Part shown: positions 20,001-46,900 of the stretch, piece after piece
How positions within the stretch are numbered: the first letter of the stretch is position 1
How the letters are laid out: each line of letters opens with the position of its first letter
NCBI GenBank assembly: GCA_003614675.1
Contig: ML002215.1
Span: forward strand, 1 to 64,000
DNA: 64,000 nucleotides
Origin: Dimargaris cristalligena
Taxonomy: Eukaryota
Direction: 5' to 3'
The notes under the pieces: generated by a model
The model's input: the letters and a program-made list of their open reading frames with translations, nothing else
Databases searched by the model: none
What the model was told of the DNA's origin: nothing
Made by a program: the position numbers and the translations under genes

Positions 20001-20374
20001 CCCGGACCGTGGACGTCGATGACGCCCACGAAGCTACCCGTCTGGTCCGGACCGGTATCCAACTCGCGGCCACCGATCCCCTGACGGGAGCGATTGATTT
20101 GGACTTAATCGCGACGGGTATTAGTTCGCATACCCGCCGGTTCCTGGATGACATGAAAAAAGAACTGGTCCAATTACTCGCCCGGCGGTCCGTGCCCGCC
20201 ACCCGTTGGCATGTCGCCCTAGAAGAACTCAACGAACAGTCCTCCGTGGAGGTCCAGGCTAAAGACTTCGAACAAGCCCTGCGGGAATTGGAAACCGAGG
20301 GCTATGTTCAAATCACCGGCGATCGTGGCCACCGGCTCATTCGTCGTTTGGCGGCTGGTTCAATGGGCATGTAA
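17038..20374 (+). CDS. MCM4: DNA replication licensing factor MCM4, 4 exons
   Basis: Exons 17038-17234, 17447-17855, 18026-18606, 18862-20374. S/T-P-rich N-terminus, VIWGTTV, Zn finger CSNC...CPRDVC, LQETPDVIPDGQTPHTV, Walker A GDPGISKSQ, IDEFDKM, SRFD. Confidence 0.96.
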
Positions 20375-23337: not shown

Positions 23338-23485
23338 AAATGGGGGCAGTTTGGTGAGGCCGTATAACAAGAAATCCATTGGACGGGGTTAGTATTACTG
23401 GTTAAAAATAAATGTCCCGCTTATTCTCCTATGCGCATACCATGTATACCTCTCTGTATACAGCTGGGTCGAATTTCACCCACAT
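23338..23485 (+). mobile_element. MITE family copy C (diverged)
   Basis: Retains AAATCCATTGGA, TATTACTGGTTAAAA and TACAGCTGGGTCGAATTTCACCCACAT; ends ~90 bp upstream of the methyltransferase ATG. Confidence 0.75.
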
Positions 23486-23573
23486 CAAACTTTTATTAAA
23501 ATTTCTACCTAAATACTGTTTCCCAATTCCATTTGATTTTCACCCGCGAATTCCCCTTACCAGACTAGGTCGA

Positions 23574-24969
23574 ATGGAACCCGCTGATAGCCCAGCGGCC
23601 AGTCCCGAGTTGGCCTTGACGCCCAATGAGCTTCGTCTGGCCCAACGAATCCAGCGCCAGGTCCTTCAAATGGTTCCACTACACCTTCTCGATTTTTCAC
23701 CCGACGACTTTAGTGTTACTTTAATGGACCAAGGGGAAACGGGCGAGCTGGCTCACATGGCTTTTCAGTCTTGGATAGCCGAGGAACTATTGAACCACCC
23801 GCTCATGCAGCGTTACCCGCCTCCGCCCACCTATTTACGGGGGTTTCTGAAACGCTATTTGGCTCTGGTGGAGCGACTGGAACCCGCGGCCGAGGTTAAC
23901 GAAGCGCTTCTAGCGACTTACATTGACTTGCTTGGGCAAATCCCCGCTAGCCAAGATGGTCGGCCCCTTGACCGTTGCTACAAAACCTATCTACCGTCGA
24001 CGGGGAGCCCTAGAAACAACCTCCCCGCGGAAACCTCAATTACCCTCCAAGAGGAACAAATGATGATTTGCCGGGGTACCACGGGCCTGCGCACCTGGGA
24101 AGCCAGTTTAAGGCTGGCCGAGTACGTTATCCAAGAAGGTCAGGCATTGGTTCAAGAGCGGGCAGTGGTTGAGCTCGGTAGTGGGACTGGTCTAGTAGGT
24201 CTGGTCAGTGCCCTAGTCGGTGCCACGCGGGTGACCATGTCGGACTATAATCCCGAGGTTTTGGATCTCTTGCGGGATAATATCGCTCTTAATTCCGACC
24301 GGCTACCCTGTCCCGTAGAAGTTCGTCGCCTCGACTGGACGAAATTTTCCGTGGCTGACCTCACCTCCTTCCGAGAGAGTACCGTATTGGGCGCCGATTT
24401 AGTATATGACCCTTCAATCATTCTAGCCCTCGTGGATATACTGCACGCCTTTGTAACTTTAGACTGTCAAGTCTATGTGGCATCCACAATTCGCAACGCT
24501 ACTACATTTCAGCTCTTCCGTGACACATTAGGTAAGTGCATTTATGACGGAGTATGGTAAGCGGGTCAATAGACATTTTGAAATCAACTTGCTCACAAAG
24601 GGGGCTGCCTACATCACAAATCCAGTGGAATCATGAAATCAGGGTAGAAACCTATTCTATTAATTCCGGAATAGCCTATACGCACAAATGCCTTTATTGA
24701 AAATATTAATTTGCATCCACAAGGGATTTGGAGCTATTGCTACGACCTATACGAGGGTCAATCGTAAGCAATACCAGCTTATAGACTATCGACCGACTAA
24801 ATCAGTTGTTAAAATTTAACCAATTAATTTGGTCATCTATTGTTCACGAATAGTCGATCATTCGGATATAATCCTAGAGGAGTTCGAACTTGACCAAATA
24901 CCCCGCTGTTTCTTTCATGAAAACCCCGATTCTCGAGTCGTTATTCTCAAGCTAACTCAATCGAAATGA
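23574..24969 (+). CDS. EFM3: Protein-lysine N-methyltransferase, EFM3/EEF2KMT (FAM86)-like, 2 exons
   Basis: Exon 1 23574-24531, exon 2 24854-24969. FAM86-like N-terminus (YPP...YLRGFLKRYL), GTTGLRTWEAS, VVELGSGTGLVG, LDW, GADLVYD, STIRN. Confidence 0.85.
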
Positions 24970-25527: not shown

Positions 25528-28500
25528 TCAGGCACTTTCTATACTAGAGTTGTAGCCATCGCTCTCAATATCGGAAGGTGATTCGGCAGCCGAGTCTTCT
25601 GTCGGCACCGATGCCAACTTGGCCAAGTAAGCAATGGTATTCTGACGATTTATATCCGCTAGGTCTAGGCCAATGGTCAAACGGTGACAGCGAGTAACGA
25701 GTTGAATAGCGGTCAGGGAATTACCGCCGAGTTGGAAAAAGGTGGCCTCCAAAACAACAGCGGAGGGCTCAATCTCGAGTATCTCGGCAATTAAGGCAAC
25801 CAGCTCCGTTTCGGTAGGGCTGAGTTCGACGGGGTTTTCGTTGCAGCGGGTGATTGTGAAATCGAACCTGGGCAGGGATCTCCGATCGACTTTACCCACT
25901 TGGGTGAGGGGAAGCTGGGCCAATTCGACCAACCCAGAGGGCACCATGTAGTGGGGTAACCGACCGCGCAGAAAGTCCAGAATACCCGCAGTCCTGCCGG
26001 CGACGGGGACTACATAGCCTACCAAGTGGGTGTCATCCTGGATCAACACCCGGGCCTGGTCTACAGCGGGATGGCGTTCCAAGGCACTCTCGACCTCCCC
26101 CAACTCCATCCGATAGCCGCGCAATTTGACCTGGAAGTCCGCACGACCGAGACATTCGACTCGACCACCCGGCAACCAACGGCCGAGATCCCCCGACCGA
26201 TAAAGCCGGCCTCCGGTAAAGGGGCATTCCATAAATTTTTCCCCGGTGAGTTCCGGTTGTTGGAGGTAGCCTCGGGCGAGCCCAAGTCCACCCAAGTAGA
26301 TTTGCCCTGTTGATCCAATGGGTACGGGACGCATATAGGAGTCCAGAATAATACTGGTGACATTGGCCATGGGCGTGCCCACGTGTATCGTGGACTCATC
26401 TACTCGCATCCGATTCCAGTGCGATAAAATGGTTGTTTCGGAGGGACCATAGGCATTGATCAGCTCCACCACTGGCCCCCAGTTTTGAGCGACTTTGACG
26501 GGCATTGGTTCACCGCATAGAATTAGTTGCTGAAGGTTGGGATAATGGCTAGGCTCGAAGCAGGCCATCAGGGACGGAACTGCAATGACCCGAGTGGCTA
26601 GCTGGAGAGCGGACTCATAATCTCCAGGGAACACTAGCGAGGTACCGCCGAATGATAGCGGGGACCAGATCTCTAGAATGGACATGTCGAAAGTCGGGGT
26701 AAGCATCGCCGGCACGACCGTGTCCGGGCCGGCAGGAAAATCGATATTGAACCCCAGCATAAAGTTGCTGAGCGACTGGTGCTCTATCATAACACCCTTA
26801 GGGGCGCCCGTTGAACCGGAAGTGTATACCACGTAGGCCAGGTTCGAAGGGGAGATGGCCGGCGATACGAATGGTGCCGATTCGCCCCTAGTTAGCAAAG
26901 GAAGGGCGTCGATTGGGATACGAGAGATATCAATGTCACTAAGGGCCGCCAAAAATTCGGCACGCCCAATGACAGCAGGACATTGGGCGTCTGCGAGAAT
27001 AAACCACATCCGGTCCAGCGGGAAGTTAGGCACCAGGCAGACGAAGGCCGAACCGGTCTTCCAGACAGCTAGCTGACTAATGACAAGCTCCAAGGATCGT
27101 TCCGCCAGTATACCAATGATCCGATCAGGGCCACAGTCGACAGACTGGGCGAGCACTTGGGCAAAATGGTCCGAGGCAGTGTCCAGCTGAGCGTAGGTAT
27201 ATCGCTCATTCCCTTCAATTAAAGCCGTGTGATTGGGGGTCAGGCGAGCCTGGTATTGGAAGATGGAGTGAATGTAATCAAGTACAAAGGGTCGGGGGTT
27301 AGCAGCAAAGGAGTGCAGTAGCTGGTGGCGTTCGGCTTCCGCAAACAGCTCGACGTCCCGGAAGGAGGCCTGGGGTCCCAAACTAACGATCGAGTTAATG
27401 GCCTGTGCAAAATGGTTGGCGAATCCGGACATGAAGGTGTCACTAAAATCCAACTGGCGGTAAGTAAGGCGGAACTTCAATTGGTCATTCTTGGTAAACG
27501 CCCCGATAGACAGGGAGTAGTCCGTGGGGTCCCAGCCCCTTTCAAGGTGAAAATGAATGGGAAGGTTGGGATCGTCCGACGTTTCAGGATAATTCTCCAA
27601 AACGAATATGGTGTTGAAGAGGGGTTTTTCGGTACTTATCCCACTCCAGCGGTGGATATCGCTTAAATGGTTATGCTCGTAATTACACATGACCGTACTG
27701 TTGGTTTGGATCGACTGTAGAACATCCGCCACCGACACGTTTCCGGCAAGTGGGACACAGCAGGGCACGGTGTTAATACACAGACCCACCATATTGGCAA
27801 TACCATCGAGGTCTACATTGCGACCCGAGACCACCGCCCCGAATACCGGGAAATCGGACCCGGTATAGCGCTGAAGAACGGCAGCTAGAGCCGCCCGAAG
27901 AACGGTCGATAGTGTGATACCTAGATCCTTCGTAAAGCGATTCAAAGCATCCAGAGGACCAACAGTGTGCTCAACGATACCGTAAAATCCATCATCATTA
28001 GGGTGGGTCCGGTTGTCGGGCCGGTGGTGGGGCTCAGTTAGCAGACTAGGGGTCTCAACGGAAGCAAACTGGCGGGCCCAGAACGATTCAGCCTCAGACT
28101 GGTCCTTGGCTAGGATATGGCCCACAAAATCTTTGAAAAGGAGGGAGTGGCTGGTGGGGGTTAGTCCTGAGTAGTACTCCAGAGCTGTCCTGAAGAGCGG
28201 TCCGTTTGACCAGCCGTCCAGAATGGCATGATGGGCCGAAACGAAGAAACGGTAGGTATTCTCAGTAATACGGAATAGGCCGAATTTAATTAATGGTAAG
28301 TGGGACGGGAAGCCAGCCGCGCGCTCGGCCTGCGTAAACTTGACATCAAGGGTAGAGATCACGCTATCCCGCCAATCACCAATGACCCACTGGGGGCTAA
28401 ATGATTTGGTGATCAGTTGGATATTGCGGTCCGCCTGGCCACCAGTACCCATAATAAACCGGGTGCGCAGGGTATTATGTATCTGGGCAGTGTCGTCCCA

Positions 28501-31500
28501 CGCTTTCTGGAACCGAGTGATATCCAAGTCACCCGTAATGGTGAAGGTCAGCTGAACAGCGTAGGCGGTGGGGTCCTGGATAGTGGCAAACAGCATACCT
28601 TCTTGAAGCGGTAGACACGGGTAAATATCCTCAATGTCATCGGCGCCGAGGTCTAGTAGGGGAAGCTCCTCCTCAATAAATTTGTTGATATCGAACTCGG
28701 GCGCGGTTCCCTTCGGTAATGTAGAACTAAGGAGGGGGAAATCCGACAAGGTCCAGAAAGGTAGGCAGTCGGGTTGCTCAAGAAGGTGCACCATGTCGGC
28801 CAAAGCCTGTTGAAATTCAGCCAATAGAGACTCAATCACACCCGATGGCACCACTTGGGGGCAATAGTGGATAGTGAATTTAAGTCCGGACGAGGTGGGG
28901 ACCCCGATAACTTCGAGTAGCTGAGGGCGCAGTTCGGCGGGATCACAGACCGCCAAATGAGAGGTAAGGTCCGGTCGAACAGTCCAGAGGGCCCGACCTC
29001 CCCGGGTTAGGGTACTCTGGTCCGTGGTGTTGCCTAGGTAGTTAAAGGCCACTTCAATCGGAGCATAGGATGAACTGGCAATCTCGGTATCCCGAGACTT
29101 ATCCAGCATATGATGCAGCCCGTATTTCAGGCCCTGGGTGCCACTCGAAGACCGACGGGCCTGTTTGGCCACTTTAAGATAATCTGCAACGGTTGTATCG
29201 CTGTTGACTTGGGCTTGACAAGGTACCAATGCGGTAAACCAACCAACGGTGCGGCTGGGGTCAAGGGTGGGTTGGAAGGGGAGGCGGCCGTGCGACTCAT
29301 TGAATATTGTAACTGTCGGGGCCTGCGATATAGAAAATAAGGCTCGGAACAAACCAGCCATCATCACTTCCAGGGGCTGGATGCCATGGGTATCAACGTG
29401 AAGTACGGCATTGGACATGGCGATGTCTAATTTAATTGACCGGGCCTGGATATTGTCTTGGTAGTTGAGTGACATAGTGTCGGGCCGAATATGGGGGAAC
29501 ATTGTTTCTAGAGGCTGGGTAGGGGGTGAGGCATCCTGGTTGGTGGTGGTTATAGTTTCCTGGGCCCATTCTGCTAGCTCAGTGGCCCAGGTGGCGAATG
29601 GTAGATGCTGCGGCACCGGTGGTTTATCTTCCAGAAGCAAGGATAAATCCTCCAAGATAATAGCCCAAGACACCAAGTCTACGACAAGGTGATGGACTGT
29701 TATAAAGAGTAAATGTTGGACATTAGCAGACTGCGATGTAATGGTCTGTGGGGTGTCATTATTTGACAGCGTAATGAGACCGGTGGCGAGAAGGTGGCCC
29801 TGGGAAATATCCAGTGACGACTGGATATCGATAAAATGATCAGTGAGGTCGGACGGGGACGCATTAAGCTCAAATACCGGGACGGGTAAACGGGCGAAGG
29901 GCGGTAGGACTCGTTGACTCCATTGGTGGGATGAACTAGTCGAGTCGCGGATAAACTGACAGCGTAACATGTCGTGGTGGTTAACTAGGCGGAGCAGGGC
30001 CGAGGATAACTGTGCGACAGATATAGGTCGGACTAACTCTAAGGCAAACGACTGATTAAAGTGATGGGGGTTAGCCCAGGGGTGATCCAAGAACCACGTT
30101 TGAATGGGCGTGAGCGGGAAGGAGGTCTGGTAGTCGATGGCATGCAATTGGCCCGCGATGCCGGCGGTCGATGTTATAGCAATCATATCCTGGACCGCAT
30201 CCTGGAGCGACTCGCGGCCCAGGAGGGCGTGGCCCGGTAAGGCATACCCCAACTGACGGCACTTGGATGAGACCTGAATTCCCGAGATGGAATCGCCACC
30301 CAACTTTACGAAGGATAGCAGCAGGTTGACCTGATTGGGGGATAGACCAAGAACCTCAATTAGAGCCTGGGTTAGAACTTTCGCCGGCTGGCTGGATGGG
30401 GACGGACCGGCGTCAGACAGCGAAATCAGCGTCCGCTGGGACGCTAAATGTTCGACAAAGTGGTTCTGAAGAAACTTGGTATCGCACTTGGAATTGACCG
30501 TGAGAGGCATAGTTGGCAGACCCACAATGTAACTCGGGATCATGTACGAGGGTAAGAGTTTGGCTAGGGCCGTGCGCAGGCGGTCTTCATTGACGGCAGT
30601 CTCCGGGATAACATAACTGACTAGGAACGAGTCGTTCACAAACACGGCACAGTCTTTCACTCCAGGCTGCCGCAACAATACACTCCGGATTTCGTCGAGT
30701 TCGATTCGGAAGCCACGTAGTTTGATTTGGCCATCGGCGCGTCCTAGGCACTCCACCTGGCCGTCAGGTAGCCAGCGACCCAGGTCACCCGAATTGTACA
30801 GCTTACCCTGGCCTGTGAAGGGATTGTCGATAAACTTGGAGGCATTAAGATCAGGCCGGTTAATATAGCCCTGGCTAACACAGACCCCGCCGATAAAAAT
30901 CTCACCAACGGTCCCAATGGGAACTAATTGGAGATTCCCATCAAGGATGTAACACTCAGTATTCGCAATGGGTCGGCCAATAGATATGCGGCTTCCAGAG
31001 ATCACTCGGCCGACATGGCTGATGATGGTAGTTTCTGATGGACCATATCCGTTATACAATTCAAGGAAGGGGGTCCACTTGGCGGCCAATTCTAAGGGTA
31101 AAGGCTCGGCCCCCACCACTAGAGCTTTTAAGTTGGGGAACTGGCTGGGTTCGAGCGGGGCAATAACGGAGAGGGGCAGCATGGCGCTCGTGATGGTTGA
31201 CAAGATATCCGGCCCCGTCTCGTTGGGGAAAACCAGGGTCATCCCATATACGAGCGGGAATAGCAAAACAAGTATACTGGCATCGAACCCCGGTGATACT
31301 TGGCAGAGAAACCGCATGCCCGGATGGCGCAGGGACGCAAATGCCTCATTAGTAATAACATTGTTTAAAGACCGGTGCTGGACCACGATCCCTTTGGGTA
31401 GGCCGGTAGTCCCCGAGGTAAACACGATGTAGGCCGTGTCATTCGGCTGAACGGTATATTCCATACTTTCGTGAGGGTGGCCATCAGGGCCCGGGGATAA

Positions 31501-34500
31501 GTTTTCAGAGTTTAATGCTTCTGACCACACTGTACTAACCCCAGTGACAGTTACCACTCGGGTACACTCGGCGATATCAACGATATACTTTTGGCGATTG
31601 TGCGGGAGTTTGTTATCCACTGGCACGTACACCGCCCTAGCACACCAAATAGCCAACATACACATAATGGTATCCGGATGACTGGTCGCCACAACACCTA
31701 CCCTGTCTCCGGGCTGTACATTAGCGAGTCTCAGGCGATTAGCCATGAGCTGAACACTCTGGGCGAGCGCTGCATATGTCTGGGTATGAACCCCAATTTC
31801 TGTGGCTACCTGTTCGGGGTTCTTCTTAGCTGTCTTAAAGAATAGCTCGAGAATATTCACATGGGGGGTCTCGGGGGGGTTGGTCAAACCCAAGGAACCG
31901 ATAGCAAAGTCCTTGAGTAGAAGTCGGGTCTCGGAGTCACTGATCAATGGTGCGGTGGGCCAGGGTTCGCACAATACTATTACAGAGTGGGCGAATAGCA
32001 CGAAATTATGGGACAGTCGGCCCGCTGTGTCAGCACTGAAAATTGAGGGATTGAACATTAGTTGACACTTCATGGCTGGTTCAGAATCAACAATGGCTAG
32101 CTGCAGATCATATGGGAACATAGTGTGGAATGGTGTCGGATAGCTCACTTGGATCCCAGAGGTAGGTTTGCTACTATATACCTTTTGGAAAGCAAAGCAC
32201 ACTCGTGAAAGGCCAGCGAGGCGACAGTGGCCAGGTAGGTCAAGACCAGCTAGCAGCTCACCAACTGGTGGCATGGGATGGGTCAAGGATCCCCCAATTT
32301 GATGAACTATAAGTTCAGTTAGTTCATGAAATTCGACTGACAGTTTCCCAGAAATTCGAACAGGCCTACGGCCCATAGATGAAGAGTCGCCTGAAATGAC
32401 CGTGTCGGAGCGATGGCCGCCGGATTCGCACATATCTATTACCAAATCATCTTGGTTCGTCAGGCGCCGTAAAAACACAGTGAAAAGGGTGAGCCAAACA
32501 TCAGAATCGCTTATTGATTTAGATGAGGACAAGTTTCGTATGGCTACAGCCAGTTGTTCTGGGATGTCGACCTTTACGTCACAACATTGGAAGGTTGGTA
32601 ATGAGGGGTGAGCATAATCGGGTGATAAACCCAATTCGGTGGGGGGATCACGGAGGAGGGTAGTCCAGTATTGGACATCGGCTTTGGTGGGTAGATGGGT
32701 GGTAATATCAGGCCTTGTGATATTATCAACACTAGGGTTGAGGGAATTGCTAGATAATTGCTGGATAAACGTCTGTACAATTCTCTCAAACAAGTACGAG
32801 TCACAGGATATTTCATGGACGCGGAGGGAAATAGTGGATACTGTTTCACTATAAGATAGCACTGCTAGCTGATATAGATCGACTTGGGTCAAGGTACCTT
32901 GGGTCACATCGAAATAGGGTACTGTTTCCTCCAAGTACGCGTCATCAAGGATGTGGGGGCCATCAATCAGATGTTCAGAAACCCCAATTTGCATATTCAG
33001 CACGGTTCGGCAAGTCAAAACCCCTTGCTCAGAAACAAAACGGCACCGCAGTTCCTCGTACTGAGCGGCAATATAGTTGATGGACCTCTGGATGTCCTCT
33101 AGCCGAAGTGGCGCAGAAGAGGAAATGAGAATGTGGTGGTGGAAGTCTACCTGGGGCTCATCTAGTTGACTAAGGGACCAGATACGTTGTTGGCGCTCGG
33201 TGGGAGCCAAGAGACGGAGGTATGGCGCTGGTTTATTGACGGTTGGATAACTATTGTGATTGCTAACTACACCAACCGCAGTGACCTTGATGCGGCCGAC
33301 GAGGTTGGTAATTATATTAGCCAAATCACAGAAGTCGGAATGTTTAACCAGGTCGCCAATAGTCAGCTGCACATCATACTTCTGACGAATGCGGAACTGC
33401 AGCTGCTCCAACTGAGCCAATGTGGCGCCCACTGTCGAGTGCACAGCCTGCGGAGAAAGTGAGTCGAATGATAGCTGAGTAGAACACAACTCATTGGTCA
33501 CAACAGTTAGCCACCATTCAGTCTCCGATAAGTTTTCGGTGGAGTGTGTCAGGTGGGCATTGAGGTAGGCTTGGACAAAAAATTGCAAACGAGACGATAG
33601 GATATCGGAAACATGCGGAAAATCGCGAGTAGAAATGATGAAGTGGGGAGTGAGGACGGCTGGAACGAGTGGGTAGACAACCCTCTCCTTTAATCGAACT
33701 ATTTCGCTTTCGGAAGCATTCGCCACTAAGACTATTACTTGGCCACCGGGAAGTAGCAAGGTTTTAGGCGACCGGGCACCCGCCTGGACGAGTACCTGTT
33801 CCAGGACTCCGAGGTGCAGCTGGCGATCGTCGATTATTACTCGCTGATGGCTGGCGCCTAGAATATGCACCATCTCATTAGAACTCCGATAGCCGAGAAC
33901 GGGTGGTCCAATTGGAGCGACTTTGTCGGCCGAATGAAGGTTGACCAGAGCCAGTCGACCAACGACGCCGGGTGGACAAGAGTGGCCACAGCCGTCCAAG
34001 ACGGCCAAGATGGTATCGCTGAAAGGCTTACCAGAACTGGGAAGACTACGTGATATTAAATGCTCGGCGGTCACCACCTGATGGCCATGTATGATGGATG
34101 CAATAAACACTAGACAAGTGTCCGATGGCCTGAGCCAATGAAGTATATCGGCCCAGGTGGGTTGAGCTAAATCGCAAAGAACTAAGCGACTTCCATCACA
34201 GGGGTCAGCATTGATGTCATCAACGGTTACAATTTGGCAGACGGACGCGGTTTCCTCTCCAGGGGCAACTAAGCTCGATGACACAATTGGTGTACCCGAC
34301 AATAAGCAGGAGAGGGCAAGCCAGGGAAACTGGGGGCTAGCCGGGGTCAGCGAGGGGTTAACAACGCACGTGTCCACTCCGTCAAAATATGATTGCATCG
34401 AATGAAGGGCATGGTGGACCAGATGGCAATGGGCAGTAGGTAGTGTACAACACTCGGACTCAGAGGCAGAAATCAGGGACAGGCCGAAGTCCATTGGATC

Positions 34501-37500
34501 GGTCATAGAGGGATGCTGGCTCAGTTCAATGACATTCTCAATGTGATAACCCGATGAGCCGACTACGCTGACTAAAACAGACTCGGCTGCTACGTATGGG
34601 CGGATGGACTCAACTAGCGATGATGGCAGCCACACAACTTGAAAAGCGCCCGAATCGATATAAGCTACCATATCGTCGACTGAATAGCTTGTCGGCAGGA
34701 TCGATAGTTTTACCCCCAATGTAATGGCCGCCACGAGACACCCCAGTAAGCATTCGATTGATTCAACAAGAGCCACAACGGAAACTAGTCGGTCCTCAAC
34801 AGCCTCCGCTGTGCGGAAGGCCAGCGAATTAGCCACCTGATTCAGTTCCAGGTAAGTCAGTGAATGGGCATCACCCTGGTAAACAACCCCGATGGGATCT
34901 TTCGTGACTGCATCATTCCATTGTTGGAATAGTGAAGAAACAGTTGGCGTATGAAGTGGCTCATTGCCATTGGCTGTGACCAATTCGTGTGGTAAAGTGG
35001 AAATTGGTGAATCGAGGGACAACTGGTCAACCGTGCAATCAGGAAGTGCCGCCATAATTTGCCCTAGAACTATTTGAACCATATCTACGAGCTGATCAAT
35101 GGAGACATCGGAATACGTACTCCTACTATAACTCACCTTGGCCTCGACGCAAGTGGTACGCTCAATAAAATTGATGGCTAGCTGGTACTCAGTAAGTTCG
35201 TCTATACCCATGTTAGACATGACTAGCGTATGCAAAGGATTAGTGACTGGGTCAGGAAAATGTTCCGAGCCAACCAATGTGTGGAATAGTGGTCGTCGGC
35301 GACCCGAGGCCACCCATTTGGTAATATCAGTCAGCTGTGTATGCTCAAATGAGATCATAGCAATCTGGGCCTGGTGAATCGATTTCAACCATGACTCCAG
35401 GGGAGACCGATCCAGTCGTACCCGGAACGGCACGGTGTTGGCGCAGGGTCCAATGACCTGCTCTATCCCGGGAATTTCAAGGTTGCGTCCGGCCACCGTA
35501 ATGCCAAATACCACATCATCTTGGTCAAGAAGGCGACTTAGTACCACCGCGTAGGCGGCCCGGAGTAAAACTGATAACGAGATACCGTATTTCTGTGCAG
35601 CTTGAATCAACCGACCCTTGGGAAGTTTGAGAATAGTAGCTTGGGTTGTAAAACCAGACTGCCCGCAATAATCCGGTTGAAGTAGGGGTGCGGGAGTGAT
35701 TGGTGCATTCAATAGATATTCGGTCCAAAAAGTTTGAGCGACAGTGGTTTCAAAGCGTTGAACGTGGTCCACCATATCAGTAAAACTGGCACCCGGTACT
35801 AGGGACACCATAGAAGATTGGTGGTAGGCGTCCATCCATGCCTGAAGCAGCAGGGGAAGCGACCACCCGTCGATGAGGGAATGGTGGATGGTGATGACGA
35901 CATGGTGGACCTGGTCATCGGCGGTAGGGAATACAAAGTTTCGGATCATGATGTCCTTTAGGGTGAAGCCGCGTTGACGGTTCGACCTGAAAAACTCATC
36001 GAGTGAGAACAGTGGGCGGTCCTGAATGGTCCAGACGTTCGGGCTGGGTTGCAAGACCACTTGGATAAAGCCCCGGGACTGCTTAGCCGAAGACTCGAAG
36101 AAGATGGTGCGCAGAGGAGCATGTTGTTCGGCGACGGAATCCCAAGCCCGGACCAGGCGATCGAGATCCAGGGGGCCCATAATTTTTAAGGCCGCTTGAA
36201 GCAGATATGAGGAGGGATTGGTGGATACCCCAGTCAATAAGCCACTCTGGAGAGCAATGCACGGTAGCAACTCTTCCAGCTGGCTCAATGGGATGTGCCG
36301 CCGATTAAGTTCGCCAACGATGTCTTGAAACTCGGAACTGGACAGTTGCAAGTGAGCAAAATCGAATTGGGTAAGAAGGGGTTCGGCGTATAGCGGCTGG
36401 GCCCGTTTGGTTACATCAGCTAGCTCGGCTAGATTGTGGCGCCAGCCAGCCATCACCTGGTCGATTACGATCCGTGAATATACCCGGGGATTGTACTCGA
36501 TAACTAACCTTAGGCAGTCGCCTACAATCGTGGGCATTGGGTTAATATCGAAAATAACGTGGTCATCGGGAGCAAAATCGTGTAAACCAAAGTAATCCGA
36601 CCACTCGATGGATAGGGGGTCATCCGAGGAACTATTGTTGGCATCATTGTTAAAACGGCCAAAGTAATTGAACTGGACGTCCAGTCGGGCGGGGGTCTTG
36701 GCCTGCAGTTTGGCTCGCTCTTCCGCTGGGACTCCGGGCATGTATTTGAGTAGCGCATAGGGGAACCCCTTGCCGGGGATCTGCTGCAATGCCTCTTTAG
36801 TATGGCGCAGAAATTCCAGCAGGGACTGGCCCGGACGGGTGTGGAGTACCAGGGGGTACAGGGCAGTGAACCAACCGACAGTACGGGTGATGTCCTGCTG
36901 GGCGGACCAAGGTTCACGACCGTGGCCCTCCATACAGAGGGAGACTTGTTGAAGACCAACCGTATGGGCAAAGGTCTGGGTAAAGGTGGCTAAGAGAAGA
37001 TCCCTGGGGGTGACTCGCCACTGTGGGGCCAACTGGAAGAGCAAGGCGTCGGTGAATTCTTGATTAAACTCCAGGGAGGTGGAGATACGGGCGGACGACG
37101 TGTCGCCATCGTCGACTTCCGGCGGAGGAAGCAAAGTAATAATGTCCTGAATCGGATTACCAGGATTCACTTGTGTGGGCCAGACATCTGCCGAGAGACG
37201 GCCGGCGTAGTCACCTAATTGGGCCGCCCATGCTTGGAAGGGCAAGGTTTTGGGCGGCAGTGGGTCACCCCGCAAAAGGGTGTTAAGGTCTTCAATCAGG
37301 ATGCGCCACGAGATCAGGTCCACCAGAGCATGGTGGATAGTGATAAATAGGCGAGTATCACTGGGGGTCGTGGGATGGTAGATTAGGGCGGCAGCTAAAA
37401 CGGGCCCGGTCGTCAAATTAAGCCTGGATTGTACGTTCAAGATGAAATCCGGATAGTCTACTGGGGCTACACTATCCTCGGTGAGAAATATATCGACAGG

Positions 37501-40344
37501 CGACGACGTAGCCATAGTGATGGCTTGGGTCCACCCCTGCTCGTCCTCACCGGGCTGAAACCGCGCTCTTAGAATATCGTGGTGGTTCATGAGGGACACT
37601 AAAGCACTGGTAACTGCTGATAAAGGCAAAGGACAGTGCGGGTTCACTTTTAGGGTGAACGACTGATTGAAGTGGTGCTGGTTATGAAAGGGTATCGAAA
37701 AAAACCAGCGCTGAACAGGGGTCAAATCAACCGTGCCTTGAATTGGGCCACTGTATATCGCATTGGTCTTCTTGGTAACAGTGGTAGCTTGCGGAATATT
37801 TTGGGTCATTTGGTGAAGCTCGGGGTACTGGTAAATCAGTGGCACTGTTAGCTGGTACCCCAGCTTCTGCACTCTAGACACCAACAGGATAGCCGAAATA
37901 GAGTCACCTCCGATGCGGAAGAAATGGTCGGTGGGGTTAATACGCTCAGGGTCCAGCTGTAGTACCTGGGCCCAAGCAAGGCGCAGGTCCTGGTTCACAT
38001 CGAGCAGGGGGTCGGTAGCATTCGGGATGACTGTTGCGGAATTCGACGACTGACGCACCAAGTGATCAATCGAAGGAAGCGACTTGCGGTCCAGCTTGCC
38101 ACTTGTTGACGTCTGAAATTCGGTCACGGATACCAGCAGCTCGGGAACCATCTGCTTGGGTAAGTTGTCCACCAAAAACTCCAGCAGAGCAGTGTGGTCT
38201 AGGTCGTCGGGGCTCGAGTAAAGAACTAACTTGTCGTGTACCACCGCCGCCACACTGTGTTTGAGACCGGGGAACCGACTGGCCGTATTTTCCACTTCTT
38301 CGAGCTCGATCCGGTACCCGCGAAGCTTGATCTGATTGTCTATACGACCCAGAAACTCGACGGTACCGTTTGGCAGCCATCTAGCGTAATCGCCAGTGCG
38401 ATAGACCCGGCCGGGCCCATATGGGTTAGGGATAAATTTGGTCCGGGTAGCGTTGGGGAGGTTTTGGTAACCGCGGGCCAGCCCGATACCCCCGATAAGC
38501 AGCTCCCCCGGCACACCAACCGGCACTAACCGAAGCTCATCGTCGACCACCAAATTGAAAACATTCCGGATCGGCTGACCAATGGTAATGTCATCATCGG
38601 GTCGGATAATAGCCATATTGCTGAAAATGGTAGTTTCGGTCGGTCCATACATATTGGCCAAGGTACACCGATGGGCCCATTGGGCCTGTAATTCGGGCGT
38701 AAGAGACTCTCCCCCGGTCACGATGGCTTTTAGCTTCGCTAAGTTGGTGGGATCTAGGCGGGCTAGGAAAGAGGGTACAAAACACCCCGCTGTGGCCTCG
38801 GACAAGTCAGCCAAAATATCGGTGGTCGGAATCATCACCGTACTTCCCGCACATAATCGGTGGAAAATCTCGTATAGGATACCATCAAAGGCCACGGACA
38901 TCATCTGGATGACCCGGTTACCGGGACCATGGGCGTCTTGTAAATTTGGATCAGTGACAATGTTGGTCAAACTGCGGTGCTCGACTTGGACCCCTTTGGG
39001 TTGGCCAGTAGTTCCAGAGGTGTAAACCACGTAGGCTAAATCGTGGGGCGACGATGAAACTGGTTCGAATCCTGATACTTCCGCGTTCTTAGCGGACAAA
39101 TGGACGTAGGGGTCAACCACTAATACGGGCACTCTTGACTGGCCCGACAGGCGGTCCAGGGCCGATTCGACAGTAATGGCCAGTGCTGCTGCACTGTCGT
39201 CCAAAATAAATTGGATTCGGTCGGTAGGGTAATCAGGGTCAATGGGTACATAAGCGGCGCCGGACTTAAATACCGCGAGCAGCGCAACGATAAAGGCGAT
39301 GGACTTAGGGATAAGCAGCGCAATCCGCATCTCGCGCTGGGAACCGTATTTCTCAATTAGACCCCGAGCTAATTCAGAAGTGGCGTAATCCAGTTGAGCG
39401 TAGGTCCACTCCTCGGTTCCGTGAGCTAGTGCCAAATGGTCGGGATAACGCTGAGCGCAGTCCCTGAACAGGTGGTGGATGGGCCGGTCGACGACTTGAA
39501 CTGGCTTATTCATACAGGAAAAACCCAGTAACCTTTTTTGTTCCCGATCGCTGACCCACGGAATGTCACGCACCAAGGTGGGCAGTTGGTTTGGAATTGA
39601 ACTTAGGAGGGTTTGCCATACTGCCATAAAAATAGTGCTAAATTGATTTGCAAACTCTTCGATGGCGGTGGCTCGATATGCTGACCGGGCTGATGTTAGG
39701 CTAAGCTTAGCCACGCCATCTCCACCCCAGTGGCAGCTCGCCAACAGTTTAGCCCCAGCCAGGGTCAGTAGGTCTGTGTGGGCACGTTCGGCCCTGTGAA
39801 ATGCAGAGATGCAGTGGGTGTCAGAGGTAGGGGGCCCCCGACTGGTTGGCGTACCAGGTGAGGCGCAATGCAGAAAAACCTCTATCGGTGTACAGTTACC
39901 CGGTGCCTCCAAAGTGACTTGATTGTCAGTAACAGAAACCGGAATGTTATCTGACTCAGGGTAAACCTGGTCACTCAGGCCCAATGAACCGACCGGTAAA
40001 TCGGGGTCCACTTGCCATAAGGCCAACGTATATGATACTGGGCCGGTAGTTTGGTGGGGCTCCTGGTCGTTTGCGACTGGGCTATCTAGAAGCCCAAAAG
40101 CCACCAACGTTTGCTGGTAGTAGCGACTTAAGAGAATAGCCATACTTCTCTGGACACAATCCTCGAAAGTGGAAATGTGGGCCGGTTGGACGGGAGTGTT
40201 GCCGAGGACAGAGGTGTACGTTTCAAACCCGGGAAGAGTCACTCGGGACTTGCCAAGCGGCAATCCGGCGTTCGGGAGATACTCAGCTGGCACTGACGGT
40301 ACCAGGGGTTGGTTGCCAGCAACGAGAACAAGGCGGAAATTCAT
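25528..40344 (-). CDS. Non-ribosomal peptide synthetase, 4938 aa, intronless: [partial C]-A-T-E-C-A*-T*-C*-A-T-E-C-A-T (* = degenerate)
   Basis: Three intact A domains (YTSGTTGQPKG, FTSGTTGLPKG, YTSGSTGAPKG); three T domains (GGDS, GGDS, GGNS); two E domains (HHALVDLISW/EGHGRE/RTVGWFT and HHLVVDLVSW/ESHGR/RTVGWFT); C domains HHSLIDGWS and HHAILDGWS; no TE, R or terminal C domain. Confidence 0.96.
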   Translation of the reverse strand: MNFRLVLVAGNQPLVPSVPAEYLPNAGLPLGKSRVTLPGFETYTSVLGNTPVQPAHISTFEDCVQRSMAILLSRYYQQTLVAFGLLDSPVANDQEPHQTTGPVSYTLALWQVDPDLPVGSLGLSDQVYPESDNIPVSVTDNQVTLEAPGNCTPIEVFLHCASPGTPTSRGPPTSDTHCISAFHRAERAHTDLLTLAGAKLLASCHWGGDGVAKLSLTSARSAYRATAIEEFANQFSTIFMAVWQTLLSSIPNQLPTLVRDIPWVSDREQKRLLGFSCMNKPVQVVDRPIHHLFRDCAQRYPDHLALAHGTEEWTYAQLDYATSELARGLIEKYGSQREMRIALLIPKSIAFIVALLAVFKSGAAYVPIDPDYPTDRIQFILDDSAAALAITVESALDRLSGQSRVPVLVVDPYVHLSAKNAEVSGFEPVSSSPHDLAYVVYTSGTTGQPKGVQVEHRSLTNIVTDPNLQDAHGPGNRVIQMMSVAFDGILYEIFHRLCAGSTVMIPTTDILADLSEATAGCFVPSFLARLDPTNLAKLKAIVTGGESLTPELQAQWAHRCTLANMYGPTETTIFSNMAIIRPDDDITIGQPIRNVFNLVVDDELRLVPVGVPGELLIGGIGLARGYQNLPNATRTKFIPNPYGPGRVYRTGDYARWLPNGTVEFLGRIDNQIKLRGYRIELEEVENTASRFPGLKHSVAAVVHDKLVLYSSPDDLDHTALLEFLVDNLPKQMVPELLVSVTEFQTSTSGKLDRKSLPSIDHLVRQSSNSATVIPNATDPLLDVNQDLRLAWAQVLQLDPERINPTDHFFRIGGDSISAILLVSRVQKLGYQLTVPLIYQYPELHQMTQNIPQATTVTKKTNAIYSGPIQGTVDLTPVQRWFFSIPFHNQHHFNQSFTLKVNPHCPLPLSAVTSALVSLMNHHDILRARFQPGEDEQGWTQAITMATSSPVDIFLTEDSVAPVDYPDFILNVQSRLNLTTGPVLAAALIYHPTTPSDTRLFITIHHALVDLISWRILIEDLNTLLRGDPLPPKTLPFQAWAAQLGDYAGRLSADVWPTQVNPGNPIQDIITLLPPPEVDDGDTSSARISTSLEFNQEFTDALLFQLAPQWRVTPRDLLLATFTQTFAHTVGLQQVSLCMEGHGREPWSAQQDITRTVGWFTALYPLVLHTRPGQSLLEFLRHTKEALQQIPGKGFPYALLKYMPGVPAEERAKLQAKTPARLDVQFNYFGRFNNDANNSSSDDPLSIEWSDYFGLHDFAPDDHVIFDINPMPTIVGDCLRLVIEYNPRVYSRIVIDQVMAGWRHNLAELADVTKRAQPLYAEPLLTQFDFAHLQLSSSEFQDIVGELNRRHIPLSQLEELLPCIALQSGLLTGVSTNPSSYLLQAALKIMGPLDLDRLVRAWDSVAEQHAPLRTIFFESSAKQSRGFIQVVLQPSPNVWTIQDRPLFSLDEFFRSNRQRGFTLKDIMIRNFVFPTADDQVHHVVITIHHSLIDGWSLPLLLQAWMDAYHQSSMVSLVPGASFTDMVDHVQRFETTVAQTFWTEYLLNAPITPAPLLQPDYCGQSGFTTQATILKLPKGRLIQAAQKYGISLSVLLRAAYAVVLSRLLDQDDVVFGITVAGRNLEIPGIEQVIGPCANTVPFRVRLDRSPLESWLKSIHQAQIAMISFEHTQLTDITKWVASGRRRPLFHTLVGSEHFPDPVTNPLHTLVMSNMGIDELTEYQLAINFIERTTCVEAKVSYSRSTYSDVSIDQLVDMVQIVLGQIMAALPDCTVDQLSLDSPISTLPHELVTANGNEPLHTPTVSSLFQQWNDAVTKDPIGVVYQGDAHSLTYLELNQVANSLAFRTAEAVEDRLVSVVALVESIECLLGCLVAAITLGVKLSILPTSYSVDDMVAYIDSGAFQVVWLPSSLVESIRPYVAAESVLVSVVGSSGYHIENVIELSQHPSMTDPMDFGLSLISASESECCTLPTAHCHLVHHALHSMQSYFDGVDTCVVNPSLTPASPQFPWLALSCLLSGTPIVSSSLVAPGEETASVCQIVTVDDINADPCDGSRLVLCDLAQPTWADILHWLRPSDTCLVFIASIIHGHQVVTAEHLISRSLPSSGKPFSDTILAVLDGCGHSCPPGVVGRLALVNLHSADKVAPIGPPVLGYRSSNEMVHILGASHQRVIIDDRQLHLGVLEQVLVQAGARSPKTLLLPGGQVIVLVANASESEIVRLKERVVYPLVPAVLTPHFIISTRDFPHVSDILSSRLQFFVQAYLNAHLTHSTENLSETEWWLTVVTNELCSTQLSFDSLSPQAVHSTVGATLAQLEQLQFRIRQKYDVQLTIGDLVKHSDFCDLANIITNLVGRIKVTAVGVVSNHNSYPTVNKPAPYLRLLAPTERQQRIWSLSQLDEPQVDFHHHILISSSAPLRLEDIQRSINYIAAQYEELRCRFVSEQGVLTCRTVLNMQIGVSEHLIDGPHILDDAYLEETVPYFDVTQGTLTQVDLYQLAVLSYSETVSTISLRVHEISCDSYLFERIVQTFIQQLSSNSLNPSVDNITRPDITTHLPTKADVQYWTTLLRDPPTELGLSPDYAHPSLPTFQCCDVKVDIPEQLAVAIRNLSSSKSISDSDVWLTLFTVFLRRLTNQDDLVIDMCESGGHRSDTVISGDSSSMGRRPVRISGKLSVEFHELTELIVHQIGGSLTHPMPPVGELLAGLDLPGHCRLAGLSRVCFAFQKVYSSKPTSGIQVSYPTPFHTMFPYDLQLAIVDSEPAMKCQLMFNPSIFSADTAGRLSHNFVLFAHSVIVLCEPWPTAPLISDSETRLLLKDFAIGSLGLTNPPETPHVNILELFFKTAKKNPEQVATEIGVHTQTYAALAQSVQLMANRLRLANVQPGDRVGVVATSHPDTIMCMLAIWCARAVYVPVDNKLPHNRQKYIVDIAECTRVVTVTGVSTVWSEALNSENLSPGPDGHPHESMEYTVQPNDTAYIVFTSGTTGLPKGIVVQHRSLNNVITNEAFASLRHPGMRFLCQVSPGFDASILVLLFPLVYGMTLVFPNETGPDILSTITSAMLPLSVIAPLEPSQFPNLKALVVGAEPLPLELAAKWTPFLELYNGYGPSETTIISHVGRVISGSRISIGRPIANTECYILDGNLQLVPIGTVGEIFIGGVCVSQGYINRPDLNASKFIDNPFTGQGKLYNSGDLGRWLPDGQVECLGRADGQIKLRGFRIELDEIRSVLLRQPGVKDCAVFVNDSFLVSYVIPETAVNEDRLRTALAKLLPSYMIPSYIVGLPTMPLTVNSKCDTKFLQNHFVEHLASQRTLISLSDAGPSPSSQPAKVLTQALIEVLGLSPNQVNLLLSFVKLGGDSISGIQVSSKCRQLGYALPGHALLGRESLQDAVQDMIAITSTAGIAGQLHAIDYQTSFPLTPIQTWFLDHPWANPHHFNQSFALELVRPISVAQLSSALLRLVNHHDMLRCQFIRDSTSSSHQWSQRVLPPFARLPVPVFELNASPSDLTDHFIDIQSSLDISQGHLLATGLITLSNNDTPQTITSQSANVQHLLFITVHHLVVDLVSWAIILEDLSLLLEDKPPVPQHLPFATWATELAEWAQETITTTNQDASPPTQPLETMFPHIRPDTMSLNYQDNIQARSIKLDIAMSNAVLHVDTHGIQPLEVMMAGLFRALFSISQAPTVTIFNESHGRLPFQPTLDPSRTVGWFTALVPCQAQVNSDTTVADYLKVAKQARRSSSGTQGLKYGLHHMLDKSRDTEIASSSYAPIEVAFNYLGNTTDQSTLTRGGRALWTVRPDLTSHLAVCDPAELRPQLLEVIGVPTSSGLKFTIHYCPQVVPSGVIESLLAEFQQALADMVHLLEQPDCLPFWTLSDFPLLSSTLPKGTAPEFDINKFIEEELPLLDLGADDIEDIYPCLPLQEGMLFATIQDPTAYAVQLTFTITGDLDITRFQKAWDDTAQIHNTLRTRFIMGTGGQADRNIQLITKSFSPQWVIGDWRDSVISTLDVKFTQAERAAGFPSHLPLIKFGLFRITENTYRFFVSAHHAILDGWSNGPLFRTALEYYSGLTPTSHSLLFKDFVGHILAKDQSEAESFWARQFASVETPSLLTEPHHRPDNRTHPNDDGFYGIVEHTVGPLDALNRFTKDLGITLSTVLRAALAAVLQRYTGSDFPVFGAVVSGRNVDLDGIANMVGLCINTVPCCVPLAGNVSVADVLQSIQTNSTVMCNYEHNHLSDIHRWSGISTEKPLFNTIFVLENYPETSDDPNLPIHFHLERGWDPTDYSLSIGAFTKNDQLKFRLTYRQLDFSDTFMSGFANHFAQAINSIVSLGPQASFRDVELFAEAERHQLLHSFAANPRPFVLDYIHSIFQYQARLTPNHTALIEGNERYTYAQLDTASDHFAQVLAQSVDCGPDRIIGILAERSLELVISQLAVWKTGSAFVCLVPNFPLDRMWFILADAQCPAVIGRAEFLAALSDIDISRIPIDALPLLTRGESAPFVSPAISPSNLAYVVYTSGSTGAPKGVMIEHQSLSNFMLGFNIDFPAGPDTVVPAMLTPTFDMSILEIWSPLSFGGTSLVFPGDYESALQLATRVIAVPSLMACFEPSHYPNLQQLILCGEPMPVKVAQNWGPVVELINAYGPSETTILSHWNRMRVDESTIHVGTPMANVTSIILDSYMRPVPIGSTGQIYLGGLGLARGYLQQPELTGEKFMECPFTGGRLYRSGDLGRWLPGGRVECLGRADFQVKLRGYRMELGEVESALERHPAVDQARVLIQDDTHLVGYVVPVAGRTAGILDFLRGRLPHYMVPSGLVELAQLPLTQVGKVDRRSLPRFDFTITRCNENPVELSPTETELVALIAEILEIEPSAVVLEATFFQLGGNSLTAIQLVTRCHRLTIGLDLADINRQNTIAYLAKLASVPTEDSAAESPSDIESDGYNSSIESA

Positions 40345-45259: not shown

Positions 45260-46900
45260 TTAGGCAGACGCTGAAGGAGGGGGAAGATATACCCCTTTCA
45301 AAGATTTAGATATGTCAGGCTGGGCCAAGACGGCATAGCAGAAAAGATACTGAATGGCGGATTGGACCATCGTGACCCGTTGGGCCCGTAGATAGCGCAC
45401 CAGGTCGAAAATTAGATCCCCGGCTAGGAGGATTTGGGAAGCTGACCGACCGGCGTAGGAGGCGAATAATTGTTGGACGAAGGGTTGGAGAATAGGCGCA
45501 ACTCGACTACTAGCCTCCCCCTGCCACTGTTGAGCTAGTACCATTGGTAATGAGGCGGTGGAGTTAGGAATAGGGTGGTTTGATTTGGAGGGAATTTGGG
45601 GGGAATTTGTAAATTTGGCCAACTGGGGATTGCTTTCAAGGGCGTGGAGAGCCCAATCGAGGGCAATAAAGGTACCCGTACGACCACACCCGGCACTACA
45701 ATGTACGATGACTGGAGCCCGCGGGGAATAATCAGCATCCGATGTTAACGCAATTGACGAGTCGCGTGCAGAAGAAGTTGACGGATTAGAAGGGAGTAAC
45801 GACGAGGGGGAAGGGGAGGAAGTGGAGTAAAAAGGGGGATTGTATTGGTAAACGGCATCCCGGAGGTGAGTGAACAGTTCTAGCTCGTTCGGTACCCCGC
45901 AGTCCGGCCAGCTTTGGTAATGAAGTTGGGTTACTTGGAGGGAGGAATTTCCCAGGCTAACCAAGAGGTCCCGGACAATGGCCCCAGTGGAGGGGTCGAA
46001 CCGTTCCCCGCGTAGTGTAACGCGCAGTCCACCTAATTCGGCGAAGACGAGGGTGGGCGGAGGAGAGCTGTGACTAGCTGGGGTCCGATTTTTCCTCATG
46101 GGCCAGTAGACGTCGCATTTTAGCACGTTTTTCTCGACCTCGCGGGTTAACATTACAATAACCCGGGCCTGCTGCTGCCAGACCAGGGCCCAAAAGTCGC
46201 CTATGGTACTACTCAGCGGACCCTGGGTGGCGATGTAGGTTTGGCCCGTCTGCCAAGGTGCAAAGATCCAACTGGCGTTGATGTAGTCGCCGGGCACCCC
46301 CCCTTCATCGCCGTCCTCACCATCTGACCCAGCCGCATCGCTATCATCCTCACCGCCATCAGCGTCACAGGCCAATGCCTGGGTATGACGATGGCCGGTT
46401 TCGGAATCGGCGGTATCGATGGAGCGGCGGGATATTAGTTCCTCGAGACTGTGGTACACCGAGGATAATCCTTCTGCGACGGCAGTTAGTGGCCCTCCTC
46501 TGCTCGCTTCACTTATCCGTTTGGCCGACGAGTCCATAGTAGAAGACGGGGGCAGAGCAGGGGGTTGGGGATCGTCGCCACCGCCGACCAACCGGCGCCG
46601 GAGTCGAACCCGGTTATACTCAAAAGGCAGGATATCTTTGTAGCGATCCACGTCCCACCGCGCATACACTGCGGAAAGGGCCACCCGATGGTACGGGTGT
46701 TGCGGTTCGGTGCGGGCCGTGAGAAAGGCGGCCTTTTCTTCGTCGCATATCCATTCAAAACGCTGGGCGAGTAAGTGGCGGGTGTGGACCTGGTCGAACG
46801 AACGGAGGGTTTCCCCTAAAGGTAGGGTAGCGGGCGGTGGGGTGGAAGGGGTGGTTGCGAGCGCAAACTTTGGTCGGCTGGTATTGATATGGACGCGCAT
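45260..46900 (-). CDS. Classical protein-tyrosine phosphatase, 546 aa
   Basis: DRYKDILP, DYINAS, YIATQGP, IVMLT, KCDVYWP, WPDCGVP, catalytic VHCSAGCGRTG, Q-loop MVQSAIQY. Confidence 0.93.
   Translation of the reverse strand: MRVHINTSRPKFALATTPSTPPPATLPLGETLRSFDQVHTRHLLAQRFEWICDEEKAAFLTARTEPQHPYHRVALSAVYARWDVDRYKDILPFEYNRVRLRRRLVGGGDDPQPPALPPSSTMDSSAKRISEASRGGPLTAVAEGLSSVYHSLEELISRRSIDTADSETGHRHTQALACDADGGEDDSDAAGSDGEDGDEGGVPGDYINASWIFAPWQTGQTYIATQGPLSSTIGDFWALVWQQQARVIVMLTREVEKNVLKCDVYWPMRKNRTPASHSSPPPTLVFAELGGLRVTLRGERFDPSTGAIVRDLLVSLGNSSLQVTQLHYQSWPDCGVPNELELFTHLRDAVYQYNPPFYSTSSPSPSSLLPSNPSTSSARDSSIALTSDADYSPRAPVIVHCSAGCGRTGTFIALDWALHALESNPQLAKFTNSPQIPSKSNHPIPNSTASLPMVLAQQWQGEASSRVAPILQPFVQQLFASYAGRSASQILLAGDLIFDLVRYLRAQRVTMVQSAIQYLFCYAVLAQPDISKSLKGVYLPPPSASA

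Follow-up and report, generated by a model that had tools for sequence, protein, structure and literature searches.

A module without catalytic motifs inside a large synthetase

The stretch of DNA analyzed here, hereafter the window, comprises 64,000 nucleotides of Dimargaris cristalligena (assembly GCA_003614675.1, contig ML002215.1, positions 1 to 64,000). It is gene-sparse eukaryotic DNA holding one open reading frame (ORF) of 4938 amino acids (aa) for a nonribosomal peptide synthetase (NRPS), at 25528–40344 on the minus strand, as are all of its domains. The frame is single and open, without stop or frameshift, and encodes adenylation (A), carrier (T), epimerization (E) and condensation (C) domains in the order Nfrag-A1-T1-E1-C2-A*-T*-C*-A3-T3-E3-C4-A4-T4, where Nfrag is an N-terminal remnant and A*-T*-C* is the dead unit considered in this report. 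Public proteins bearing the name Dimargaris cristalligena are 96–100% identical over the dead-unit region. For the A1–A10 motif names, the DCL and LCL labels (assigned by context) and the C–A linker helix, we use what we take to be the accepted definitions.

A sequence-only reading of the window had proposed that a whole, catalytically dead A-T-C module is kept in frame inside the NRPS. All five motifs on which it relied were located in this one ORF: LTYLEL at residue 1829 (34860), PPGVVGRL at residue 2124 (33975), the eroded string GASHQRVIIDDRQLH at residue 2163 (33858), VGATLA at residue 2305 (33432) and HEISCDS at residue 2510 (32817). The proposed extent also fits the domain boundaries, from the start of A* at 34932 to the end of C* at 31960. 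The domain scores that it had suggested as a check, obtained with Pfam on 31945–35244, agree with it. A* reached 13.5 bits for AMP-binding (cut-off 29.9), compared with 208–251 bits for the three active A domains, T* gave no PP-binding match, whereas every active T of the NRPS did, and C* gave a weak Condensation match of 85.6 bits.

The losses could be assigned to individual residues. The A* core (33850–34932) keeps an A fold, and its ATP motifs (the P-loop of motif A3, A7, A8 and the A10 Lys) are gone, here and in all aligned paralogs. In the alignment to the A3 domain of the same protein, the P-loop position reads LISASESECC, and the alignment stops at FPH, ahead of the A10 Lys. The small subdomain that follows (Asub*, 33616–33849; QRVxxxxxQxHLG ... 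FPH) likewise lacks this Lys and is present in all homologs examined. A predicted 20-residue helix (F..AYL; 33529–33615) then replaces the A10 loop and the flexible Asub–T linker. T* (33301–33528) has a carrier fold and a family motif, EWWLxVxxNEL; the claim that it lacks the phosphopantetheine Ser can be made exact, as Leu2309 (33418–33420) occupies this position with GATL aligned to GGxS. For C* (31960–33210), the reported absence of HHxxxDG holds in a refined form: the His of HEISCDS is the first, structural His, which is retained, and Glu2511 stands at the catalytic second His. The three domains share 13–19% identity with active domains, and two marks of an active elongation module, the carrier Ser in GG(D/H)S and the second His of HHxxxDG, are both missing.

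Structure prediction, also suggested at the outset, indicates that A, T and C folds follow one another in the pseudo-module as they do in an active one. The A*-T* model (pLDDT 77, pTM 0.68) had NRPS A-T structures as its top matches at 13–16% identity, and Asub*-T*-C* was modeled with a pLDDT of 78 and a pTM of 0.79. Compared with C domains, the C* model gave a Z score of 25.7 and a root-mean-square deviation of 3.0 over 401 residues, consistent with a full C fold.

Intact domains flank the unit on both sides. Upstream lie A1 (38083–39483; YTSGTTGQPKG, Pfam), T1 (37795–37998; GGDSI, Pfam), the epimerase-type E1 (36406–37743; HHALVD) and C2 (35014–36276; HHSLIDGW); A3 (30475–31857; Pfam and motifs) and T3 (30181–30387; GGDSI) follow downstream. 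The two joints differ. In the C2-A* linker (34933–35013) the C–A helix motif is lost, whereas the C*-A3 linker (31858–31959) carries the canonical motif (LISDSETRLLLKDF). Among D. cristalligena paralogs, the motif was found in 0/17 C2-A* and 14/17 C*-A3 junctions, and in other species it was lost in 7/7 and present in 5/6, respectively, with a crude pattern that matches just 11/21 active C–A controls. Linker profile scores were −1.9 to 2.0 bits for C2-A* and 0.2 to 13.3 bits for C*-A3. The C2-A* joint thus appears loosened and the C*-A3 joint kept.

The remainder of the NRPS consists of E3 (28765–30129; motif and paralog layout), C4 (27325–28632; HHAILDG, Pfam), A4 (25882–27273; Pfam and motifs) and the last domain, T4 (25612–25818; GGNSL). 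No thioesterase, reductase or terminal C-like domain was found after T4 (25528–25818) or downstream of the NRPS end. Among the paralogs, C372 and C1151 likewise end at a T domain, and C41, C143 and others finish with an E-like terminal C domain. The approximately 250–280 residues before A1 look like an eroded half of a C domain and are common to paralogs (32% median identity). In the window we read this remnant (39520–40272) as the C-lobe of a C domain by likeness, and Pfam gave no match to it; it is possibly a second dead piece, serving as the platform of A1. The observed/expected CpG ratio in the NRPS gene was 0.67–1.02, and hence there is no CpG desert.

Conservation and origin of the dead unit

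The dead unit is not confined to this gene. The D. cristalligena genome returned at least 22 matches to it, a count that is a lower bound, and 16 other near full-length copies have open frames at 32–37% identity, which makes the unit more than a chance remnant. In ORFs rebuilt from contig stretches, it lies between an intact C2 and an A3 wherever both sides are present. Seventeen of 18 C2-type matches (42–100% identity) run into A*. The remaining one is a 484-aa C2-type ORF that stands alone (HHSLMDGL; L061 4793–6244, G000:C136), with no other NRPS domain in the 10 kb stretch examined. E1 is absent in two copies (C41 and C209), and the window copy is without a close paralog (31–39% identity in A*-T*). 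Throughout the genome, Leu occupies the Ser position in 18/18 T*, and C* retains the first His and has Glu or Asp at the second in 17/17, with Asp6 retained in 7/17.

We estimated the ratio of nonsynonymous to synonymous substitution rates (dN/dS) by the Nei-Gojobori method on 15 close paralog pairs (3–15 pairs per domain, saturated pairs dropped). Median values were 0.32 for A*, 0.23 for T* and 0.29 for C*, compared with 0.11–0.21 in active domains; these are family values from pairs that share ancestry and are not independent, that were picked by identity in the dead domains, which biases dN down, and that do not include the window copy. The active flanks had medians of 0.11 (A1), 0.15 (E1), 0.13 (C2; 0.13–0.15 in paralogs) and 0.12 (A3). 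Pooled over 7 pairs (14 sequences), the dead parts gave 0.27–0.32, compared with 0.67 for the C2-A* linker and 0.50 for the T*-C* linker. In the same 14 sequences, median identity was 13–15% in linkers (15% for C2-A*) and 31–48% in dead parts, and the dead segment from C2 to A3 measured 1049–1074 aa in 14/14 paralogs. The dead unit is under purifying selection, at the level of the fold. The active-level constraint on A1, E1, C2 and A3, together with A1 pockets that vary between paralogs, indicates that the upstream unit is in use.

These measurements bear on the simplest explanation, namely plain decay held in frame for the sake of the downstream modules, or a region that is mostly spliced out. 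The dN/dS values do lie above those of active domains, and two public gene models excise in-frame pieces (P0002, 2669–2770; P0003, 2202–2298 and 2483–2789), at window positions 31977–33742 and 39462–39955, in the dead unit and the N-terminal remnant. However, the two models splice different pieces and thus disagree, and the excised pieces are conserved as protein across paralogs; the excisions are likely annotation errors. True in-frame linkers drift much faster, the length of the dead segment is nearly fixed, and in a truly broken member of the 17 C2-to-A* paralogs (C123), stops interrupt C2 as well as A*. Decay or splicing is already largely refuted, and we give it hardly any credence.

Other species were searched in two ways. 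With an A*-T* profile run over 1.84 billion sequences, we considered the best 150 of 8043 matches, of which 19 were checked for architecture and 19 for names; the named matches comprised five D. cristalligena records, seven dead modules of other species and, for the rest, intact A domains. This profile located the dead unit in Tieghemiomyces parasiticus, Dispira parvispora, Dimargaris verticillata and D. xerosporica. To avoid circular retrieval, E1-C2 was used as a query lacking the dead unit, and it added Dispira simplex. Altogether 31 proteins were examined. The E1-C2 query contributed 20 new Dimargaritales proteins and the profile search, together with its clusters, a further 10; a Geranomyces protein served as the control. 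Asub*-T*-C* follows C2 in 29/29 C2-bearing proteins (six species, three genera), including all 19 that were retrieved only by the E1-C2 query; one D. xerosporica fragment and the Geranomyces control are without C2. A scan of prokaryote genomes with the dead unit gave 11 pattern matches, none of them confirmed, and a profile search for longer proteins gave only 10 weak matches (38–60 bits), of which those named were bacterial.

The A* core is missing in 14/18 Tieghemiomyces proteins (annotated proteins, at gene-model level) that retain Asub*-T*-C*, and in these the distance from C2 to the next A domain is 591–656 aa (654–656 in 11). The FPH and helix F..AY patterns recur in all genera. At the Ser position of T*, Dimargaris has Leu, and 16/18 Tieghemiomyces proteins and Dispira simplex have Pro; the second His of C* is absent wherever readable, with Q or P in its place in the other genera.

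Another conceivable explanation is residual activity through altered chemistry, either catalysis by C* or a relay of the chain through T*. In its favor are the acidic residue that takes the place of the second His in 17/17 D. cristalligena C* domains, the Asp6 kept by the window copy, Ser in two homologs and an active C domain with HQxxxDM described in passages of PMC11546977. Yet Gln or Pro replaces the acidic residue in other genera, Asp6 is lost in 10/17, nearly all T* domains carry Leu or Pro, and C* evolves at a dN/dS of 0.27–0.29, twice the rate of active C domains. Leu in 18/18 T* excludes a relay through T* in the D. cristalligena genome, and we judge altered chemistry as a whole to be very improbable.

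In a tree of 56 sequences, C* formed one clade (support 0.997) and C2 another (1.0), and C2 together with later fungal C domains joined bacterial DCL domains (0.995). Each of the 20 active Dimargaritales C domains included grouped with bacterial DCL, even those without a preceding E domain, and the sole LCL-like domain seen in the Dimargaritales set was the dead C*. C* itself sat on a long unresolved branch that the tree did not place in a class. With a C* profile, 10/11 bacterial LCL domains (labeled by context) scored 36–92 bits and every DCL domain ≤25 bits. By this measure LCL domains are nearer to C* than DCL or E domains are, and C* appears to be LCL-derived. The single C* clade and the shared slot in three genera imply that the module died once and early. 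Sequence comparison thus points to a kept pseudo-module with one origin before the split of Dimargaris, Dispira and Tieghemiomyces, and not to local decay. This accords with the proposed check for the same dead module in paralogs under purifying selection (paralogs and three genera, dN/dS ~0.3), and runs counter to the outcome named as refuting, absence from homologs with neutral evolution.

Proposed transfer of the first amino acid past the dead unit

Two mechanisms had been put forward on the basis of the sequence, an upstream C domain that skips the module and joins T1 to T3, and a structural spacer between independent units. The kept pseudo-module on which both depend stands and is compatible with either; we favor skipping, and the skipping and structural-platform options are not exclusive. 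C2 is the only intact condensation domain able to take the load of T1. If A1-T1-E1-C2 is in use, as its constraint suggests, and as T* is unable to accept, C2 needs another acceptor, of which T3 is the simplest, and the assembly line probably has to pass its first amino acid across ~1000 inert residues. When A*-T*-C* is deleted on paper, the E-DCL-A-T line that remains is stereochemically correct.

We propose that the ancestor was an NRPS with the layout A-T-E-DCL-A-T-LCL-A, whose module 2 (A-T and the following LCL-type C) would have lost its three activities once, before the Dimargaris/Dispira/Tieghemiomyces split. The dead module would then have been retained as a folded, non-catalytic block, with Asub*-T*-C* as the required part, a presumably dispensable A* core, and C* staying joined to A3 as in the usual C–A platform. 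In the present enzyme, A1 would load T1, E1 would epimerize, and C2 would join the T1 load to the amino acid on T3 of the same chain, bypassing A*-T*-C*; the predicted product is a tripeptide on T4 (D-aa1, D-aa3, aa4). Skipping from C2 to T3 in the same chain, with the remnant serving as the platform of A3, is the reading we prefer, at a probability of roughly 0.55. It is favored because no C2-type domain directly before an active A domain and no gene split at the unit has been shown. Irrespective of the acceptor used by C2, the remnant resembles a structural platform for A3.

Several points weigh against skipping in this form, or against the inertness and constraint of the block that it presupposes. 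T3 would have to reach the acceptor site of C2 across 590–1080 residues. The NRPS ends at T4 without a release domain, A3-T3-E3-C4-A4-T4 alone is a complete dipeptide line, and no product was found in the literature searched. The Asub*-T*-C* model superimposes on no solved T-C arrangement, although its domain packing, modeled from 17 sequences, is weak evidence and speaks neither for nor against a new packing. Ser stands at the T* position in 2/28 readable homologs (P0034 and P0194), without the GG(D/H) motif, and the C* of Tieghemiomyces has HQ, as does the active HQxxxDM domain mentioned above. In the portions of PMC6180311 on myxochromide engineering, only 1/6 carrier knock-outs allowed skipping and 5/6 stopped production. 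To these are added the limits of the dN/dS values given above and two features of the paralogs: recombination within the unit, and an ORF (C372; L049-L051, G000:C372 1909–16920) that starts mid-A*, lacks an upstream unit over 7.7 kb and yet remains uninterrupted over 5004 aa.

One alternative has two linked units. A1-T1-E1-C2 would hand aa1 over to an amine elsewhere than on T3, whether free, part of a released amino alcohol or peptide, or at the N-terminus of a chain bound to a later carrier, and C*-A3 would begin a separate line. C* would then act as a dead platform of starter type, comparable to the N-terminal remnant that precedes A1. The loosened C2-A* and intact C*-A3 platforms would suit such an arrangement, as would a downstream half without a release domain. 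Four paralogs (C193, C503, C731 and C970; L045-L046, L041-L042, L047-L048 and L043-L044) end in A3-T(GGHSI)-reductase, an ending that by itself could yield an amino aldehyde or alcohol. In all four, the nearest paralog of the 5' half differs from that of the 3' half, and the change falls near A*/T*; for C731 and C970 it falls between A* and T*, so that NRPS halves recombine inside the dead unit. The lone C2-type ORF and the ORF beginning mid-A* could be read in the same way. On the other hand, no clean fission was seen: every A1-type start that could be traced either continues into T1-E1/C2 or leaves the contig, 29/29 C2-bearing proteins are fused, and the C2 motif is of the ordinary DCL type. 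C372, C136 and C565 (L035-L036, G000:C565; two head-to-head partial copies overlapping at 4480–4615) may be rearranged or broken copies. Together with C75, C652, C928 and C123, which may be rearranged, broken or misassembled, they were not used as evidence of fission. We consider two linked units unlikely, while taking the possibility seriously.

Skipping might also operate in trans, with the pseudo-module as a dimerization or docking scaffold and C2 serving T3 of another chain or of a paralog. VibF, which according to parts of PMC8795117 dimerizes through its dead C domain C1, and the head-to-tail dimers of FmoA3 in sections of PMC10510592 are precedents. Such a scaffold would explain the variable C2-to-A3 distance across species, about 590 to 1080 aa, and family-specific invariant residues do cluster in Asub*-helix-T*. 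Nevertheless, C* is only ~33% identical between paralogs, hydrophobic residues, Gly and Pro make up most of the invariant positions, as expected for maintenance of a fold, and VibF dimerization is described in those parts of PMC8795117 as not needed for function. A C* homodimer prediction, run without an alignment, scored 0.00 against a mark of 0.32, which counts neither for nor against dimerization. On balance the trans route seems quite improbable to us.

A further possibility is that C* recruits a tailoring or release enzyme in the manner of the glycopeptide X domain, with T* or Asub* as part of the surface. C* is a dead and probably LCL-derived C domain with a full fold, the X domain is among its equally scoring fold matches (Z 24), and the window NRPS is without a release domain. 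Yet C* has HE, HD, HQ or HP at the motif and not HRxxxDD, and recruitment leaves the onward move of the T1 load unexplained. The annotated neighbors include no typical tailoring enzyme: 9/15 scanned window proteins were assigned a family, all housekeeping-type, and neither a biosynthetic cluster nor a P450 family was found among the 15. The neighbors include an AGC-type kinase, MCM4, two RING proteins, a lysine-methyltransferase-type protein, a tyrosine phosphatase and an RRM/CCCH protein (6069–7463, 18026–20374, 21198–22202, 23412–24560, 45260–46900, 49796–50851 and 58110–59375). There is little to recommend recruitment, and we give it only slight weight.

Within the preferred skipping to T3, a stronger version can be formulated, in which Asub*-helix-T*-C* is more than a tolerated fossil and has evolved as an adaptor for the bypass. 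As a rigid, non-catalytic block it would keep the dead carrier out of the way, leave the T1-E1-C2 arm free and carry T3 to a C domain that lies one module upstream. We offer this only tentatively, with clearly less confidence than the skipping itself. If true, skipping would be obligate in every Dimargaritales NRPS of this family, and the block would also be a site for free recombination between first modules and downstream lines.

Comparison with known systems

Natural skipping rests on few cases, and engineered skipping mostly fails. The fungal order offers dozens of natural versions, both long and short (A-core-less), which makes the geometry of skipping directly testable. Product prediction is altered for this mycoparasite NRPS family, as A-domain surveys miss the block (13.5 bits), counts of C domains overstate product length, and gene models splice the dead block away. 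Should the block indeed uncouple module 1 from what follows, NRPS engineering could make good use of it as a junction. Module skipping in myxochromide biosynthesis was reportedly treated by Wenzel (2005/2006), and Degenkolb (2012) and Hillson (2004) are said to be further primary references.

The closest parallel is myxochromide S. As described in passages of PMC6180311 and PMC5984369, the synthetases of the S and D subtypes bypass a module with a dead carrier, and the former also records that carrier inactivation induced skipping. Both systems have an in-frame internal module with an inactive carrier between intact flanking modules, and the Ser-to-Pro change of myxochromide S (GGNPS) is the same as in 16/18 Tieghemiomyces T* domains. 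There, the reported defect is in the carrier motif, occurs in some pathway types of one family, and the skip is proven by products. Here, A, T and C are all eroded, the unit is A-T-C, and it is fixed in the main NRPS family of three genera. The assembly-line logic may thus be called non-canonical, as the sequence-only reading did, though not unprecedented.

Among fungal NRPSs, skipping of an A-T-C by the upstream C domain has been proposed for the penilumamide synthetase PlmJ and for peptaibol synthetases (portions of PMC10549243), which is the same mechanism as proposed here, an upstream C acting past a whole A-T-C. PlmJ has an active A domain and a carrier Ser, so a relay through T is possible, unlike with Leu in 18/18 T*. 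The ferrichrome synthetases Sib1 and Fso1 (excerpts of PMC2644324) similarly hold an eroded A domain in frame; their T and C are in use and another A loads the carrier, whereas in our unit T and C are dead as well. For the fungisporin synthetase HcpA, a C domain was proposed to act past an intervening A domain (sections of PMC4041764), and one homolog has a degenerate C remnant. The bypassed A domain of HcpA was proposed to have a later trans role or to be redundant, and there is no complete dead A-T-C block.

VibF C1 and the glycopeptide X domain, the latter with the motif HRxxxDD and a role in P450 docking (parts of PMC11546977), resemble C* as C folds without the catalytic His that are maintained by selection. 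Each of the two is a single domain for which a role has been shown, as a dimer and in P450 docking, respectively, unlike C*, which is without HRxxxDD and is accompanied by a dead Asub-T. Extracts of PMC6784888, on 27 NRPSs and 'modular synteny', and of PMC9866270 and PMC7466969 provide related literature. In the literature searched, with subscription papers mostly beyond reach, we found no description of an A*-T*-C* unit or of an order-wide three-domain fossil. The dead unit is real, ancient and selected, a form of module skipping or pseudo-domain scaffolding whose mechanism we put forward as a proposal. Measured against these systems, skipping itself is already known, and what appears to be new is the order-wide, three-domain A-T-C fossil.

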